Of a stretch of DNA of 64,000 bases, positions 5,979-16,257 are shown piece after piece. Below the pieces are notes generated by a model. It saw nothing but the letters and a program-made list of their open reading frames with translations, was not told the origin of the DNA and did no database searches. Position 1 is the stretch's first letter. Every line of letters starts with the position of its first letter. The stretch spans positions 4,379 through 68,378 of the forward strand of contig JAMOVK010000149.1 of the NCBI GenBank assembly GCA_027067775.1, in the 5' to 3' direction. The translations under genes were made by a program, and so were the position numbers. The DNA is from Deltaproteobacteria bacterium (lineage in GTDB: Bacteria; Desulfobacterota; Dissulfuribacteria; Dissulfuribacterales; QOAL01).

Positions 5979-6773
5979 GTGCTTCAAAAGCTTATTGGAA
6001 AGATAAAATCTGGATGCAGCACATGTGAAAATTGCAAGGATGATCCAGACTCCCCTTCAGATCTCCAGGTCAAAAGCCTCTGTTTTGAAAAACTGCATCA
6101 AAACGAAAAAGAACAGTTTTTAAACCTACTGAAACAGACCGGCAGGGTCCTGTCTAACAAAGAGATGGACGTTGTGGATGAATTCCTTTCCCATGAAGGC
6201 CATATGTCTGGGGACTTTATCAAAAAGAGGCTCTTCCAAAAGGGAAACGATCTTCCATTGGAAGAGGTGGAAGAAATTCTTGACCTTCTTTGCAGATACG
6301 GTCTGGCACAGAAGGTACAGTTGAACGGTACAGGGCCATGGTATGAACATCTGCACCTTGGTGAAAAACATGACCATCTCATGTGTACCAGATGCGGGAA
6401 GGTTATAGAGTTTGAGGATGAAGAATTTAAAAACCAGATGAAAAAATCCGCCAGCCTTCACGGATTCCAGCCCCTTTTTCAAAAAACCACCATCTACGGC
6501 ATTTGTCCTGCCTGCAAAAAAAGACACCGTGGCGCCATTCCCCTTTCAGCTCTAAGTCAGGGAGAAAAGGCCGTCATTGTGAGTTTCTCAGGAGGTTCCA
6601 ATCTCAAGAAAAAGCTCTCGGATATGGGCCTTTTGACAGATGAACCGGTGGAGGTACTCAGTAAAAGCGGGCCAGTAATCCTTGGGGTTAAAGGCTCACG
6701 GATAGCCATTGGAAAGGGAATCGCCCAAAAGATTCTTGTCTCCCCTATAGTTAATGACAAGGAGAACTCCTGA
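5979..6773 (+). CDS. Fur-like regulator fused to a C-terminal FeoA-like domain
   Basis: GTG start with GGGAGGG ~7 nt upstream. The middle part has a Fur-type metal motif (HDHLMCTRCGKVIEF ... GICPACKK). The last ~75 aa (GEKAVIVSFSGGSNLKKKLSDMGLLTDEPVEVLSKSGPVILGVKGSRIAIGKGIAQKILV) match the FeoA/DtxR SH3-like pattern. The N-terminus adds an extra CSTCENC motif. Confidence 0.7.
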   Translation: MLQKLIGKIKSGCSTCENCKDDPDSPSDLQVKSLCFEKLHQNEKEQFLNLLKQTGRVLSNKEMDVVDEFLSHEGHMSGDFIKKRLFQKGNDLPLEEVEEILDLLCRYGLAQKVQLNGTGPWYEHLHLGEKHDHLMCTRCGKVIEFEDEEFKNQMKKSASLHGFQPLFQKTTIYGICPACKKRHRGAIPLSALSQGEKAVIVSFSGGSNLKKKLSDMGLLTDEPVEVLSKSGPVILGVKGSRIAIGKGIAQKILVSPIVNDKENS

Positions 6774-6774
6774 A

Positions 6775-7611
6775 ATGACCGGCAGCATGAAAAGTGAAAA
6801 GAGGCTTGGAACCATATGCTTTATAGGTGGTGGCCAGATGGCAGAGGCACTTATAAAGGGCCTTTTGAAAAAACAGGTCTTTGAATCAAAGGACATCTAC
6901 TGTTCCGAACCTGTTGAAAAAAGAAGAAAATATCTTCAAGAACAGTACAGAATCACTACCTTTTCCAACAACCAAGAAGCTGTAAAGAACGCAGATATTG
7001 TTCTCCTTGCAGTAAAACCCCAGGTTATGGACTTGGTGCTTGAGGAACTGAAAGCCGCAGTTCAGGCGCATCACCTGGTCATATCCATAGCTGCAGGCGT
7101 AACCATTAAAAGACTTCAGGCACTTCTTGGCCAGGACAAAAGAATAATTAGGGTAATGCCCAATACCCCTGCGCTTGTCCTGGAGGGTGCTGCAGGCATT
7201 TCAAAAGGAGACAATGCCACCCAGGAAGACCTTGACACGGCCCTTTACATATTTAATGCAATAGGAAAGGCAGTAGAGGTGCCAGAATCCCTTATGGATG
7301 CAGTTACAGGCCTGAGCGGAAGCGGGCCTGCTTACTGTTTTCAGTTCATTGAGGCCCTTATCCAGGCAGGCATTAGGGAGGGTTTGCCCCAGCCCATAGC
7401 TTCAACCCTGGCAATACAGACTGTAATCGGCTCGGCCAAGATGTGTGAAAAGACACAAAGACACCCCATAGAGCTCTTATCCATGGTAACAAGCCCGGGT
7501 GGAACAACTATTCAAGGGGTTTACCAGCTTGAAAGGAGTGGCTTTTCTGGCATCGTCATGGATGCCGTTAACGCTGCAACCAGACGTTCAAAAGAGCTTG
7601 GTGAAGAGTAA
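6775..7611 (+). CDS. proC: pyrroline-5-carboxylate reductase
   Basis: ICFIGGGQMAEALIKGL (Rossmann fold), ..RVMPNTPALV.., ..SPGGTT... Start set to ATG 6775, which has AAGGAG upstream and lies just after the upstream stop at 6771-6773. The track start 6754 overlaps the previous gene. Confidence 0.9.
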   Translation: MTGSMKSEKRLGTICFIGGGQMAEALIKGLLKKQVFESKDIYCSEPVEKRRKYLQEQYRITTFSNNQEAVKNADIVLLAVKPQVMDLVLEELKAAVQAHHLVISIAAGVTIKRLQALLGQDKRIIRVMPNTPALVLEGAAGISKGDNATQEDLDTALYIFNAIGKAVEVPESLMDAVTGLSGSGPAYCFQFIEALIQAGIREGLPQPIASTLAIQTVIGSAKMCEKTQRHPIELLSMVTSPGGTTIQGVYQLERSGFSGIVMDAVNAATRRSKELGEE

Positions 7612-10800: not shown

Positions 10801-11703
10801 TTGAAAAAAACACTTTTTATTTTTTATGCCGCCCTTGCACTTGGTATCCTGTTTTTCACTTACCCTCAAAAGACGTTTGCCAAAGAGAAGACGCATGCAG
10901 ATCATTCAGTCACTCTGTACATAGCGTACACATGCAACACCTGGGGTCAGCTGCAGCCATGTCCTTCCTGAGGAGGCAAGAAAGTCGGGGGAATCACCCG
11001 CCGGGTCAGTTGGATCCGCCAACAAAAAGAACACCACAAGATAGACCTGCTACTTGATGGAGGAAGGACGCTTTTCATACCAGGTAAAAGGATACAACCC
11101 CATGATCAGAAAAAGGCAGAAAAACTTATCAAGTATTATGAAAAGATGGGTTATCAAAACATTTGTGTTTCAAGCACAGACCTTGGAGCAGGACCAGCCT
11201 TTTTGAAAAAACTGGACTACTCGGGAAGCCTCTTCCTGTCTGCCAATGTGCTTGACGAATCAGGCAAAGCCATCTTTGAACCTGGAAGGCTTTACACCGT
11301 CAAGGGTATTAAGATAGGCGTAATAGCCCTTACGGACAGAAGTCCCACAACAACTCTTAGTAAGGGTGAATCCACAATAGTGGCAGACACCATTTCATCC
11401 TTACAAAAAATCTGGAATGCTACTAAGAAAAATGCAGATCTCATCATCCTTCTTACCAGTCTTGATCAAAGAAGTATCAAGAGGCTGGTAAAAAAATTTC
11501 CTGACATAGACCTTGTCATATCAAGCGGCCTTGGAATCCCGACCTATTCACCCTTCAAAGCTGACAAGACCTTAATCGTATCCACCCATCCAAAGGGAAA
11601 ATCCGTTGGCCTTATTGCCCTTAAGATAAAAAAAGGCATCATCTATAAATACGATAACAGGCTTGTAATGCTTAAAGAGTCGCTATTGGAAATGAATTAC
11701 TGA
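10801..11703 (+). CDS. secreted UshA/5'-nucleotidase-like protein with in-frame TGA (candidate selenocysteine at 10969-10971)
   Basis: TTG 10801 is preceded by AGGAGG (10787-10792). The signal-like N-terminus is LKKTLFIFYAALALGILFF. A single in-frame TGA sits inside C-P-S-TGA-G-G. The same frame runs without further stops into track ORF 11146..11703. The joined product follows the UshA N-terminal domain layout (..LLLDGG.., MGYQNICVSSTDLG, LSANV, IKIGVIALTD, DLIILLTSL, DLVISSG). Confidence 0.55.
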
Positions 11704-11896: not shown

Positions 11897-12670
11897 ATGA
11901 TTAAAAATATAACCTTGGCCCTTTTCTTTTTTGTGACAGCAAGCCTTGGCAACTGTCTTGCCGACTACTCCGGCCTCTGGTGGGATCCATCAAAAGGCGG
12001 ACAAGGGGTGTCGATCTTTCAGAATCAGAATTCCATATGCGGTGCATGGTACCTTTATGATTCTTCTGGCAAAGACATGTGGCTTGTATTTACTGGCGTT
12101 TTGTCACCCGGCAGCACCTTTACTGCCCAGCTTTTGCAGTACACCGGACCGGCTCTTGGAACGCCCTGGGATATAAATCAGGTTAAAAGCAGCAACAAAG
12201 GAACCGTTACCTTGGCATTTAACACCGACACCAGCATCACAATGAACTACACGGTCAACGGTATTAGCGGCACCCTGAATCTGGAGCCTTTTGCAAATGA
12301 TATCGCCTCTATGTACTGGGATCCGGACCAGCCAGGACAAGGGGTGGGGGTATTTATGGAAGGCAAAAACGTGTATGTTGTCTGGTATCTCTATGACAAA
12401 GACGGCAAAGACATGTGGGTAACAACAGGAGCAGACCTGAGCTTGACATCCAGAAAGGCCAACCTCTATGAATTCACTGGCCCAATTTTGGGCAGTGTCT
12501 GGGATCCTTCCCAGGTGCGCCCTTCTGTAGCAGGAAATGCGTCATTGATACTTGGCAATTCTGGCAAAATCCAGATAGTTTATGAAATCCAGGGAATTAC
12601 CGGAACCATGAATCTCGTACCTTTTGTATGCAGCGTTTCCCAGCGGACAAGTGCTGCATCCGGGTCCTAA
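11897..12670 (+). CDS. secreted protein made of two copies of an uncharacterised ~110-aa 'WWDP..GQG' domain
   Basis: Signal peptide MIKNITLALFFFVTASLGNCLA. There is an internal duplication: YSGLWWDPSKGGQGVSIF..AWYLYDSSGKDMW..TG..GTLNLEPF versus ASMYWDPDQPGQGVGVF..VWYLYDKDGKDMW..TG..GTMNLVPF. Confidence 0.7.
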   Translation: MIKNITLALFFFVTASLGNCLADYSGLWWDPSKGGQGVSIFQNQNSICGAWYLYDSSGKDMWLVFTGVLSPGSTFTAQLLQYTGPALGTPWDINQVKSSNKGTVTLAFNTDTSITMNYTVNGISGTLNLEPFANDIASMYWDPDQPGQGVGVFMEGKNVYVVWYLYDKDGKDMWVTTGADLSLTSRKANLYEFTGPILGSVWDPSQVRPSVAGNASLILGNSGKIQIVYEIQGITGTMNLVPFVCSVSQRTSAASGS

Positions 12671-12813
12671 ACAGGCTTCGGCCTTTGAGCCAAATCAATA
12701 ATTCTGTCCTGATAAACAAAAATCGGCAGACTGGCTTATTCCAGCCAGCCTCCTTTTTGGCTGGACACTGATGCTCTTCGTGATTTTCATTTTTTCCCTA
12801 CACTGTTATTCTT

Positions 12814-15219
12814 ATGAGCATGAAATGCAAAAATCTGAAAAAAACCTGCTGGAAGGGATTTGTTTTATTAGCTATTGGCCTTTGGCTTCTTTCATATCCA
12901 AGGCCTAGTCAAGCAATGGCTAAAGGTGGTGATGAAAAAGCCCTGCTGGAACAGGCTGCCATTGATAAAGCAAAAGAACTTTCCATGAAAAAAGTACCAG
13001 ACATGGACTGGCGGCTTGCCGAAATGCTTCGCTCAGGCGTTCATCACCACGCCCAGTCCCGTGACGGTCAGCTTTTTACAGTTTCATTGACAGTAAAAGA
13101 TGATGATTTGAACAAGATCGTCAACAGGCTCAAATTTTTTGGGGTGCAAATCCAGTCCAAAAGAAAAAACAGGCTTCAGATTAAGGTGGACAAAGGCCGC
13201 CTGAGACAAATCGCTTCCTGGAAAGAAACGGCCTACGTCCGCATGCCTTCTGTTGCCAAGGCCCAGGAAATAATTTCAGAAGCCGTATCTGCAACCGGAG
13301 CCCAGGCTATGCAGCAGGCAGGTTTTAGTGGAAAAGGGGTAAAAATTGGCATAATTGATCTTGGTTTTTTTGGCTACAGCCTTCTTCTTGGCTTGGAACT
13401 GCCTGATTCTGTAAAAAAGAAAAATTTTCGTCACGATGCGTGTGAATTTTCGTTTTGTCCAAGCCAAAAACACGGGACAGCGGTAGCTGAGTTAATCCAT
13501 GACCTTGCTCCAGAGGCAGAGCTCTATATGGTTTCTGTTGCGACTGTAGATGAATTCATGGACGCGGTCGACTGGTTGGAACACAGGGGAGTTGACATCG
13601 TTAGCTGTTCACTTGGATACTGGTTATGCGGCCCTGTAGATGGTACCGGATGGTGCAGCAAAAAGGCTGGCGAAATGAGAGGTAAAGGCATACTACCCGT
13701 ATTTGCAGCAGGAAATGCCGCCAAAAGCCACTGGTTTGGCCCGAATAAGGACGAAGATGGTGACTCCTTGATAGAGGTTGATGAACAGGTCCAGGCTCTC
13801 TTTTTCTCCTCTTCTTCGTATCAGGAAGTAACTGTTGCAGCAAACTGGAATGACTGGGGAAAAGACCCAGAGGATGCCCATTCTGATCAAGACATAGATC
13901 TTCTTGTGCTAAGCCCTATTCCCTACAGTACGGAGGTTGAAACTGTCGGAGCCTCCTTTAATAACCAGTCTGGCAGACATGGACATATGCCCATAGAGGC
14001 TACAACCTTCAATGCAGAGCCTGGAAGGCAATACTACATTTTCCTGGTAAACTCAAACACCAACAGACAGGTAACCGTGCATGTTTATCTGGAATGCAAA
14101 TGGAACAGTGAGATTACTCCACATATTGAGGCCCAATCCATACTGCAGCCAGCAGACAGTCCTGATGTTCTTACTGTAGGTGCTGCGGATCTTTCAAATC
14201 ATCTCCTTGACTATTCAAGTCACGGGCCTACCTGGAACGGCGTTGTCAAACCAGATGTTACCGGCCTTTCCGGTCTTGCTACGCTTAGCATATGGGATTT
14301 TGCCGGCACAAGCGCTGCGACCCCCACTGTTGCAGGAGCGGCAGCATTGTTGAAAGAGGCACATCCAAAGTGGGGGCCAGATCAGCTTCAGGCCGCCCTT
14401 GAGCTTCTTTCTAAAGATATCTACAAACCCGGACAGGACAACGGCAGTGGCTGTGGGCTTATAGATGTCTCTAGGGCGGCAAATCTTGGACAAGGACCTG
14501 CTGCCGGCTTTTGGTGGAATCCTCAAAAGGACGGATCAGGTTTTAGTATGGAAAGAGCTGAAGGGACGGATTTTTTGGCTGTTTACACTTACAAGCCCCA
14601 GCAAAACGACTCCATACCGGTATGGTTTACTGGTTCTGGAAAGGCATTTTCATCCCTGACAGGGCCCCTTAATCTTCTTACATGGACAGGATGGCCTCTT
14701 GGCAGCGCTCCAGGTAACTTTGCATCCTCTTATGTGGCTGAGATATCTTTAATATATCTTGACGAAACACACGGGCTTTTGCAGGTGAGGGATACAGCCA
14801 CCAACACAGTAGAAAAACAGCCTGTTGAAAGATTTGTATTCGCAAAAGGGGCCAGCAGCAGTGACAGCCGGACCGGCTGGTGGTGGGACCCGGCCTTTCC
14901 AGGCAATGGCATATTCATGGATTTTCAGTCAGGCACACTCTTTGGCGCCTGGTATCATTACGATGAAAAGGGACTTCCGCGGTGGTGGACCTTTTCCGGA
15001 AGGTTACCAGACCAAGATCAAAAGACTCTAAAGGCCGACATAATCCAGTGGCACGGCGGCCCTTGTCTTTCGTGTCCCCAGATTAAACCCTCTGCTTCGA
15101 TTGTAGGTACTGTGGAAATTGCATTCAAAAATGGTTCACCATCCATCCTAAAATGGCACACAGCTGGAGGCCTATCTGGCAGGTATAATCTTGAACGGTT
15201 TCATTTTTATAAAAAATAG
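12814..15219 (+). CDS. S8 family (subtilisin-like) serine peptidase with two C-terminal 'WWxP..GxG' domains
   Basis: Signal peptide. The catalytic triad is in frame: Asp in GVKIGIIDLG (gat 13357), His in HGTAVAEL (cac 13471), Ser in GTSAATPTVAG (agc 14311), plus the oxyanion AAGN. The C-terminal ~240 aa repeat the domain of the upstream ORF. Confidence 0.85.
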   Translation: MSMKCKNLKKTCWKGFVLLAIGLWLLSYPRPSQAMAKGGDEKALLEQAAIDKAKELSMKKVPDMDWRLAEMLRSGVHHHAQSRDGQLFTVSLTVKDDDLNKIVNRLKFFGVQIQSKRKNRLQIKVDKGRLRQIASWKETAYVRMPSVAKAQEIISEAVSATGAQAMQQAGFSGKGVKIGIIDLGFFGYSLLLGLELPDSVKKKNFRHDACEFSFCPSQKHGTAVAELIHDLAPEAELYMVSVATVDEFMDAVDWLEHRGVDIVSCSLGYWLCGPVDGTGWCSKKAGEMRGKGILPVFAAGNAAKSHWFGPNKDEDGDSLIEVDEQVQALFFSSSSYQEVTVAANWNDWGKDPEDAHSDQDIDLLVLSPIPYSTEVETVGASFNNQSGRHGHMPIEATTFNAEPGRQYYIFLVNSNTNRQVTVHVYLECKWNSEITPHIEAQSILQPADSPDVLTVGAADLSNHLLDYSSHGPTWNGVVKPDVTGLSGLATLSIWDFAGTSAATPTVAGAAALLKEAHPKWGPDQLQAALELLSKDIYKPGQDNGSGCGLIDVSRAANLGQGPAAGFWWNPQKDGSGFSMERAEGTDFLAVYTYKPQQNDSIPVWFTGSGKAFSSLTGPLNLLTWTGWPLGSAPGNFASSYVAEISLIYLDETHGLLQVRDTATNTVEKQPVERFVFAKGASSSDSRTGWWWDPAFPGNGIFMDFQSGTLFGAWYHYDEKGLPRWWTFSGRLPDQDQKTLKADIIQWHGGPCLSCPQIKPSASIVGTVEIAFKNGSPSILKWHTAGGLSGRYNLERFHFYKK

Positions 15220-15291: not shown

Positions 15292-16257
15292 CTACAGTAC
15301 TACAGTCCTATTTCGGCCATCTTTCTTGGCCTTGTACAGGGCCTTGTCCACCCTATCAATAGAGTCCTGCACAGATTCATCTGGCCTGACCTGGGTTACT
15401 CCCAAGGACACGGTAATGGTGATAAATTTGTCTGGAGGCTCTACTACGAACCTGTAGGTACTTACCTTTTTTCTCAGCCTTTCAGCCAGCTTGAAACTGT
15501 CTTCCTTGGTTGTGTGTGGAGCAATTATCATGAACTCTTCGCCACCATAACGGTAGACCGAATCGGTCTCCCTCACGCTTTTTTTCCAAATAAGGGCCAT
15601 GTTTTTAAGTACCTTGTCTCCTATTCCATGACCATAGGTATCGTTTATTGTCTTGAAACGATCTATATCGCACATTATCAATGACAGAGGATAGTGATAT
15701 CTTTTTACCTTCGAGAGCTCTTTTTGAAGATCATTTTCAAGGGCACGCCTGTTAAGCAACCCGGTTAGACTGTCTATCCTTACTTTGGCCCTGAGATCCG
15801 CTATTATCTTTGCCTGTTCCCTAACCTTTTCCTCGGTCTGCCTTGCCTGCTCCTCAAGCTGTTTATTTTTCTGCCGAAGCTCTGCTATATCATCACGGAA
15901 TATCTTCTCTTCATCCTTTTTGTCCATGGACTTGAGAGAAAGTTTCACCTCATTCACATGGTCTTTGGTGACCTGAACAAACTCCTCGACTGTCTCTCGT
16001 ACTTCCCCAAGTATCTCATTGGTCTCGTCCATGAACTCTTGCAGTAGCTCTGGGGAGAGGTCAGGCTGATTGTGCCTGAAACTGCTAACTGCAGAAAAGC
16101 CCTCTGAAACTGCCACGTCCCAAAATTCCTTGCTATAGATCTGAGGCCAAGGAAGAAGCCCCTTGCCAACAAGGTTTTTAAGGGCAATCCTAGCAATAGA
16201 CGTAACCTGTTCAGCCAAAAACCGTTTTGAAGCTATATCTATCTCCATTAAACGCAT
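15292..16257 (-). CDS. diguanylate cyclase (GGDEF domain, active-site GGEEF) with coiled-coil N-terminal region
   Basis: ..DSLTGLLNRR.., ..DIDRFKTINDTYGH..GD.., RYGGEEFMII, ..ALYKAKKDGRNR... Confidence 0.85.
   Translation of the reverse strand: MRLMEIDIASKRFLAEQVTSIARIALKNLVGKGLLPWPQIYSKEFWDVAVSEGFSAVSSFRHNQPDLSPELLQEFMDETNEILGEVRETVEEFVQVTKDHVNEVKLSLKSMDKKDEEKIFRDDIAELRQKNKQLEEQARQTEEKVREQAKIIADLRAKVRIDSLTGLLNRRALENDLQKELSKVKRYHYPLSLIMCDIDRFKTINDTYGHGIGDKVLKNMALIWKKSVRETDSVYRYGGEEFMIIAPHTTKEDSFKLAERLRKKVSTYRFVVEPPDKFITITVSLGVTQVRPDESVQDSIDRVDKALYKAKKDGRNRTVVL

Follow-up and report, generated by a model that had tools for sequence, protein, structure and literature searches.

A tandem pair of predicted beta-barrel units on a secreted subtilase and on its small neighbour belongs to a large domain family without a library model

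Introduction

What is the domain that two adjacent genes of an uncultured Deltaproteobacteria bacterium of the sulfate-reducer type (Dissulfuribacterales) carry four times over, and why would a protein made of little else be encoded next to a protease that carries it too? The two genes, referred to here as open reading frame (ORF) A and ORF B, lie on the same strand of a stretch of 64,000 nucleotides (nt) from assembly GCA_027067775.1 (contig JAMOVK010000149.1, forward strand, positions 4,379-68,378), hereafter called the window. An original prediction, made from the sequence alone, had proposed that ORF A consists of a signal peptide and two copies (A1 and A2) of an uncharacterised unit of no named family, and that ORF B, a subtilase of family S8, bears two more diverged copies (B1 and B2) at its C-terminus. 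It had further suggested that the unit could be a binding module and that ORF A could act as a partner, competitor or anchor for the protease. Here, we report that the four units belong to a huge family of tandem pairs carried by unrelated exported proteins, and we weigh what the pair may do for the proteins that bear it.

Results

Comparison of the four units confirmed that all of them are homologous. Aligned to A1 using MAFFT, they were 26-41% identical and shared 12 invariant columns (W7, P9, G13, G15, Y30, Y32, W40, G45, G62, L65, S77 and F110). BLASTP related A1 to A2 (E value of 5e-31), A1 to B2 (1e-19), B1 to B2 (5e-10) and A1 to B1 (1e-6). Profile-profile self-alignment had been named at the outset as the test on which the apparent repeats could fail; using family alignments of A1, A2, B1 and B2, hhalign aligned all six pairs with probabilities of 98.2-100% and E values ranging from 3e-14 to 7e-42. 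Furthermore, independent hidden Markov models (HMMs), built only from unrelated family members with the ORF A family and the ORF B protease excluded, matched A1 (3e-44), A2 (2e-32), B2 (1.5e-24) and B1 (6e-14). BLASTP, hhalign and the independent HMMs thus bear out the four copies, and the HMM envelopes agree within a few codons with the boundaries first drawn for them. The units of the window fit the landmarks of the family (WW[DN]P, GxG, WYxYD..G..W, TGPxxG and a terminal F), and the linkers between them are 1 amino acid (aa) and 9-10 aa long. An HMM scan of the 64-kb window revealed no fifth copy.

ORF A, of which an identical protein copy occurs on public contigs, is preceded by a Shine-Dalgarno-like GGGAGG located 12-17 nt 5' of its ATG. 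Its N-terminus is signal-like, reading MIKNITLALFFFVTASLGNCLA followed by DYSG, with K3, a hydrophobic core and an AxA-like site; the cleavage-site pattern, xxA followed by D/E-Y-S-G, is kept in the ORF A homologs. From these features we infer that ORF A is exported via its signal peptide. With cleavage at this site, the first residue of the mature protein would be the start of unit 1, and 13 aa would follow unit 2, so that the description of ORF A as a signal peptide plus two copies holds, with a short tail added. Two cysteines, C48 in strand 3 of unit 1 and C245 just past unit 2, are nearly invariant across the ORF A family. A disulfide between them could staple the two ORF A barrels together.

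ORF B consists of a signal-like N-terminus, about 130 aa without a family match, the S8 catalytic region and then B1 and B2, in keeping with the two C-terminal copies originally assigned to it. The catalytic region matched Peptidase_S8 of Pfam (PF00082, E value of 4.2e-28, 98.9 bits against a cut-off of 21.8) in two separate stretches, and weak NCBIfam matches pointed to mycosin and CspBA-type subtilases. The catalytic triad and the oxyanion Asn are present in the order D-H-N-S within the motifs IIDLG, HGTAV, AAGNA and GTSAATP; therefore, the protease is probably active. A long insertion separates the Asn301 and Ser500 motifs. The coordinates of these and the other features are given in Table 1.

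Table 1. Coordinates of the features discussed in the text. Positions are those of the window unless a locus is named.
Feature	Position	Strand	Description	Basis
Upstream ORF	10801-11703	+	in-frame TGA at 10969-10971	
ORF A	11897-12670	+	257 aa: signal peptide, two predicted barrel units, short tail	ORF list
Predicted Sec signal peptide of ORF A	11897-11962	+	residues 1-22; cleavage after C-L-A	read from sequence
Unit A1	11963-12295	+		HMM envelope
Codon of C48, ORF A	12038-12040	+		
Unit A2	12299-12628	+		HMM envelope
Codon of C245, ORF A	12629-12631	+		
Stop codon of ORF A	12668-12670	+	TAA	
Terminator-like hairpin and T-run	12731-12758 (hairpin 12731-12748)	+	in the gap between ORF A and ORF B	consensus scan only
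ORF B	12814-15219	+	801 aa; predicted exported S8 subtilase, tandem pair C-terminal	ORF list, Pfam
S8 catalytic region	13322-14493	+	D182 (13357-13359), H220 (13471-13473), N301, S500 (14311-14313)	
Insertion in the S8 region	13705-14310	+	residues ~300-500	
Unit B1	14500-14838	+	most diverged copy; TGWPLG replaces TGPxLG	HMM envelope
Unit B2	14869-15204	+	GGPCLSCP Cys pair	HMM envelope
GGDEF gene	15292-16257	-	downstream of the protease gene	
Propeller-pair gene (550 aa)	L011 2074-3726			
Propeller-pair gene (550 aa)	L023 2699-4369			
Propeller-pair gene (550 aa)	L024 3242-4915			

We then measured the reach of the unit beyond the window. A word-indexed search using ORF A returned 14 close homologs, each made of a signal peptide and two units, some with an extra Cys-containing third domain of about 110 aa; in the same kind of search the unit profile returned short fragments only and the B1-B2 region no match. 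An exhaustive profile search of cluster representatives (clusters at 50% identity) recovered 8,164 of them at E≤1e-3, 3,868 at E≤1e-10 and 243 at E≤1e-30.

Architecture was counted in 185 proteins examined in detail. Exactly two units were present in 172 of them, joined by a linker with a modal length of about 10 aa. The pair was C-terminal in 110 proteins, where it was mostly followed by a tail of 0-2 aa, stood alone in 35, was N-terminal in 33 and internal in 7. Furthermore, the best match of a unit was a unit of the same position (unit 1 to unit 1, unit 2 to unit 2) in 316 of 334 cases, indicating that the pair travels as a single piece. Family-wide HMMs of unit 1 and unit 2 scored the units of the window almost equally, and an ancient differentiation of unit 1 from unit 2 was not distinguishable by applying them to these units.

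The proteins to which the pair is fused are putatively exported and unrelated to one another. Partner domains found among 80 full-length members were Sortilin/BNR (11), Trypsin_2 of family S1 (6), RCC1 (5), YVTN/lactonase propellers (5) and S8 (2), along with M4, pro-kumamolisin (S53), GSDH, PhoPQ_related, Kelch and FG-GAP. A signal-peptide-like N-terminus was present in 115 of the 169 members starting with Met. The unit is not rare but forms a huge tandem-pair family. The ORF A clade comes from Desulfobacterales, 'Thermodesulfatator' and Deltaproteobacteria metagenome-assembled genomes (MAGs), and the sources of the wider family include Usitatibacter and MAGs of Gammaproteobacteria and Lysobacterales. 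A tblastn search of PLSDB with the family-consensus pair found no match on plasmids.

Two subtypes were apparent across the family (P0015-P0162). The window carries the subtype WWDP..GQG ... LNLxPF; the other, WWNPxESGWG ... ITRQLF, has a conserved Cys pair in the loop between strands 4 and 5, and its proteins end exactly at ITRQLF. A C-terminal Phe was found in 81 of about 125 C-terminal-pair proteins. Two candidate members or matches were set aside: a Paenibacillus match (L026) proved to be a GH16 false positive, and a 22-residue, sub-threshold CBM_56 match in L025 was treated as chance.

The closest homologs of ORF A (P0002-P0004, 70-80% identity) run on into a third domain of about 110 aa that contains cysteines and has no family match. 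When we compared positions 12629-12813 of the window with positions 6760-7176 of the related locus L003, the ORF A stop codon aligned with a Tyr codon (TAT) and the similarity stopped there, indicating that the third domain was lost or replaced in the window.

The claim that the unit has no named family held in every library searched. Pfam and NCBIfam scans of the window units gave no meaningful match at E≤10, the only one being ATS3, on one unit (E value of 0.16). No family of either library covered the unit in common among the 80 full-length members at E≤1e-3, the families matched there all being N-terminal partner domains. A profile search of PDB sequences found no match to the unit, Pfam gave no match to Lipocalin or Avidin for the units and none to the Inh family, and PPC (PF04151) matched neither ORF B nor the units. 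Furthermore, nothing relevant was found in the literature on the WWNP/WWDP motif or on tandem barrels on subtilases. The names that members bear at NCBI follow their other domains ('M4 family metallopeptidase', 'PPC domain-containing protein', 'Ig-like domain repeat protein'). The unit thus represents a new domain family, for which the libraries searched contain no model, although its general fold and architectural role are familiar.

The AlphaFold2 model of a single unit (predicted local distance difference test, pLDDT, of 95; predicted template modelling score, pTM, of 0.83) has eight meander strands of only 7-10 residues and a short helix in the loop between strands 5 and 6. A two-unit model reached a pLDDT of 83.8 and a pTM of 0.77. 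The predicted fold of the unit is therefore a compact up-and-down beta-barrel with eight strands, of the calycin/streptavidin type. DSSP assigned no helix after strand 8 of the kind found in lipocalins.

Foldseek searches of PDB with the single-unit model gave no match at E≤0.001 (best E value of 0.016, identity of at most 13%). The best of the top 50 matches were de novo eight-stranded barrels, anticalin/lipocalin, avidins, fatty acid-binding proteins (FABPs) and a barrel of quinohemoprotein amine dehydrogenase (QHNDH), with TM-scores (TMq) of 0.5-0.62; anticalin and avidins scored 0.45-0.54. Nor did any structure reach E≤0.001 when the whole ORF A was modelled and searched; UL44/PCNA, TbpB and nitrophorin matched with poor TM-scores or over a single barrel. 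A search of the viral library BFVD returned nothing. The possibility raised at the outset that the unit would map cleanly onto a characterised binding domain thus found no support in Foldseek or in the family libraries, and the models depict a generic small barrel with no specific characterised relative.

Conservation across the family is concentrated in an aromatic core (W6, W7, W29, Y30, Y32, W40, F86 and Y96), in Gly turns and in D33. In the predicted topology, the conserved loops DPxxxGxG, YDxxG, TGPxLGxxW and NG would all cluster at one end of the barrel, with the N- and C-termini at the other, an arrangement compatible with a functional face, not proof of one.

To relate ORF A to its neighbour, we inspected 15 species-level loci with a stand-alone pair gene. 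In 7 of them, the module-only gene adjoins a larger gene bearing the pair. These seven loci span three genomic contexts, two head domains (S8 and beta-propeller) and both gene orders. An ORF A homolog followed by an S8 gene with the pair, with a GGDEF-SMC flank downstream, was found in the window and in loci L003/L013 (80% identity to the window for ORF A and 69% for S8), L012/L018 (59% and 55%, respectively) and L019 (56% for both). In L005/L015 (64% and 58%, respectively), the same two genes are flanked by a rhomboid gene on one side and by a gene for an ABC transporter on the other. Hence, ORF A and the protease have diverged at similar rates.

In L011/L023 and L024, a stand-alone pair gene whose product shares 35% identity with ORF A lies directly downstream of a gene for a 550-aa protein in which a signal peptide is followed by beta-propeller-like repeats (weak TIGR04275 match) and, at the C-terminus, by a pair. 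This pair aligns collinearly with B1-B2 over 242 aa (30% identity, E value of 2e-26), and the motifs TGWPxG and GGxCxxCP are common to B1-B2 and the L011 propeller protein. As the neighbour keeps its pair but has a propeller in place of the protease head, and the two genes stand in the opposite order, these observations suggest that ORF A is linked to the pair rather than to the protease. Around L027, L028 and L029, which represent the broad family, no conserved partner or secretion genes were seen.

The genes flanking ORF A and ORF B were also compared. The upstream ORF contains an in-frame TGA, within YTCNTWGQLQPCPS-TGA-GGKKVGG. In L003/L013 (61% identity) and in L012/L018 (73% identity), the TGA occupies an identical position and both of its flanks are conserved, good comparative support for selenocysteine read-through. 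By minimum free energy, no convincing hairpin resembling a selenocysteine insertion sequence was found after the TGA (z-score of 0). The read-through product matched no Pfam family; thus, of the 'UshA-like candidate selenoprotein' of the original prediction, the conserved TGA stands and the UshA label is unsupported. Nor do the upstream ORF, ORF A and ORF B form a unit of three consecutive exported proteins, as had been thought: in L003 and L012, histidine-kinase genes separate the upstream ORF from the ORF A homolog, so that the upstream ORF does not belong to a fixed cassette. On the other side, conservation within the syntenic block is highest for the GGDEF gene, whose identity of 70-91% in L003, L012 and L019 exceeds that of ORF A, the protease and SMC.

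Discussion

We favour, with moderate confidence, the reading in which the double barrel serves exported proteins as a non-catalytic cassette for binding or targeting, with ORF A as a module-only partner or competitor. In the window, the pair would be an accessory cassette of the secreted S8 protease and ORF A a module-only paralog co-inherited with it. The double barrel would tether its cargo to a common extracytoplasmic ligand or partner, and ORF A would either contact the pair of the protease, barrel to barrel, or take the same ligand as an adaptor or competitor. Our confidence in the docking of ORF A on ORF B is lower than in the general statement on binding or targeting.

Several observations weigh against this reading. 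A module-only gene lacks a pair-bearing neighbour within 5-6 kb in 8 of the 15 stand-alone loci (L014, L016, L017, L020, L021, L022, L028 and L029), showing that the partnership is not obligatory. The idea that ORF A is a partner, competitor or anchor thus fits the recurrence of module-only genes next to module-bearing ones, yet this adjacency is limited to 7 of 15 loci. Charge complementarity between the pairs of ORF A and ORF B is absent, and the conserved positions read as a structural signature rather than as a clear ligand site. Furthermore, the 143-nt gap between the two genes contains a terminator-like hairpin, CTGGCTTATTCCAGCCAG, followed by a T-run, with a mirror-image site on the minus strand; therefore, ORF A and ORF B may be separate transcription units.

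The fold itself raises the possibility that each barrel works like a calycin, carrying a small ligand of hydrophobic or cofactor nature (lipid, quinone, siderophore or vitamin), and that ORF A is a soluble carrier in the periplasm or outside the cell. The unit resembles calycin and streptavidin barrels in its eight predicted meander strands, its length of about 110 aa, its predicted extracytoplasmic location and its best Foldseek matches (probability up to 1.0), and the proteins so matched bind ligands (anticalin, avidins, FABP, bile-acid-binding protein and VtrC). A topology in which the conserved loops all lie at one barrel end would suit such a role. Nevertheless, the unit shows no sequence similarity to calycins, no family membership was found for it, TM-scores do not exceed 0.62 and identity does not exceed 13%. 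It also differs in forming an obligate-looking tandem pair on large exported proteins, and there is no obvious reason for fusing a carrier to proteases and propellers of many classes. With units of only 110 aa, the conserved aromatics may just fill the core. We consider a carrier function unlikely.

Equally doubtful is a C-terminal pro-domain or an export or folding aid, removed or irrelevant after secretion. In 110 of the 185 proteins, the pair lies at the extreme C-terminus and has a tail of mostly 0-2 aa, as such an aid would predict, and the fusion partners among the nearest relatives are S1, S8 and M4 peptidases, the usual hosts of PPC domains. PPC is a beta-sandwich of about 70 aa. Like PPC (PF04151), PKD and P-domain, the unit is non-catalytic and occupies the C-terminal slot of secreted S8, M4 and S1 peptidases, and one relative, P0018, has a weak PPC match (E value of 0.0043) upstream of its pair, without overlap. 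Unlike PPC, the unit is also common on non-peptidases and as stand-alone proteins. The 33 N-terminal, 7 internal and 35 stand-alone pairs do not fit a pro-domain, and many partners are not enzymes in need of one. Moreover, stand-alone versions are kept at 54-80% identity across genomes, suggesting that they have a function of their own.

The tandem arrangement recalls barrels that form part of enzymes. QHNDH chains were among the Foldseek matches of the single unit (1jmx_A, TMq of 0.59) and of the whole ORF A (1jju_A), and the QHNDH alpha subunit likewise has small antiparallel barrel domains behind a catalytic or cofactor domain. Domains B and C of the D-aminopeptidase DAP are small antiparallel barrels that follow the catalytic domain. 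Unlike the pair studied here, which is a mobile cassette, the QHNDH and DAP barrels are built into a single enzyme, and they have no sequence relationship to the unit.

A dedicated inhibitor or chaperone of the adjacent S8 protease, modelled on Inh/AprI, is less probable still. The Inh/AprI/SmaPI proteins are Sec-exported eight-stranded antiparallel barrels of about 10 kDa whose genes lie beside that of a secreted protease (PMC3034196), and the Inh/AprI genes beside serralysin genes offer a precedent for ORF A, a small barrel by prediction and predicted to be Sec-exported. The proximity of ORF A to the protease gene is kept in 5 species-level loci, both genes diverging at similar rates. However, Inh/AprI/SmaPI are single barrels that inhibit via an N-terminal trunk and target serralysins, not S8 peptidases, whereas the domain of the window is also part of the protease itself and of thousands of non-protease proteins. 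Many ORF A homologs have no protease neighbour, and the A-like gene of L011/L023/L024 partners a beta-propeller protein, which weakens the inhibitor hypothesis. Furthermore, the units have no Inh match in Pfam, and neither an Inh nor a staphostatin structure was among the top 50 Foldseek matches.

We reject as highly improbable that the units are outer-membrane mini-barrels (8 + 8 strands with a C-terminal Phe) serving as autotransporter-like anchors, a reading suggested by the C-terminal position of the module, the many ends in ...ITRQLF, the 81 proteins ending in Phe and the passenger-like cargo, because the strands are short, the Foldseek matches are to soluble barrels rather than to OmpX, OmpA or NspA, and every unit, unit 1 included, has this Phe as an invariant residue of its last strand; N-terminal and internal pairs also exist, the units are acidic and polar-rich, and one subfamily has conserved Cys pairs in its loops.

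To return to the binding or targeting cassette, a bolder form, to which we give only an outside chance, would make the double barrel a self-recognising docking module that builds an enzyme scaffold, or a tag for some sorting or retention pathway that has yet to be described. In the docking version, ORF A-like proteins would assemble with the module-bearing protease or propellers outside the cell or in the periplasm. If true, this would constitute a one-domain analogue of cohesin-dockerin across Desulfobacterota and Proteobacteria.

The unit is one more accessory domain, not a new kind of system, and it merits a curated family model. It defines a family of more than 8,000 representatives that has no Pfam or NCBIfam model in the copies searched and no solved structure, and environmental Proteobacteria and Desulfobacterota carry it on their secreted proteases and propeller proteins. 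Naming this family would improve the annotation of thousands of C-terminal regions now called 'hypothetical'. Furthermore, the strict pair and the pairing of module-only with module-bearing genes provide a testable hypothesis on how exported enzymes may be positioned.

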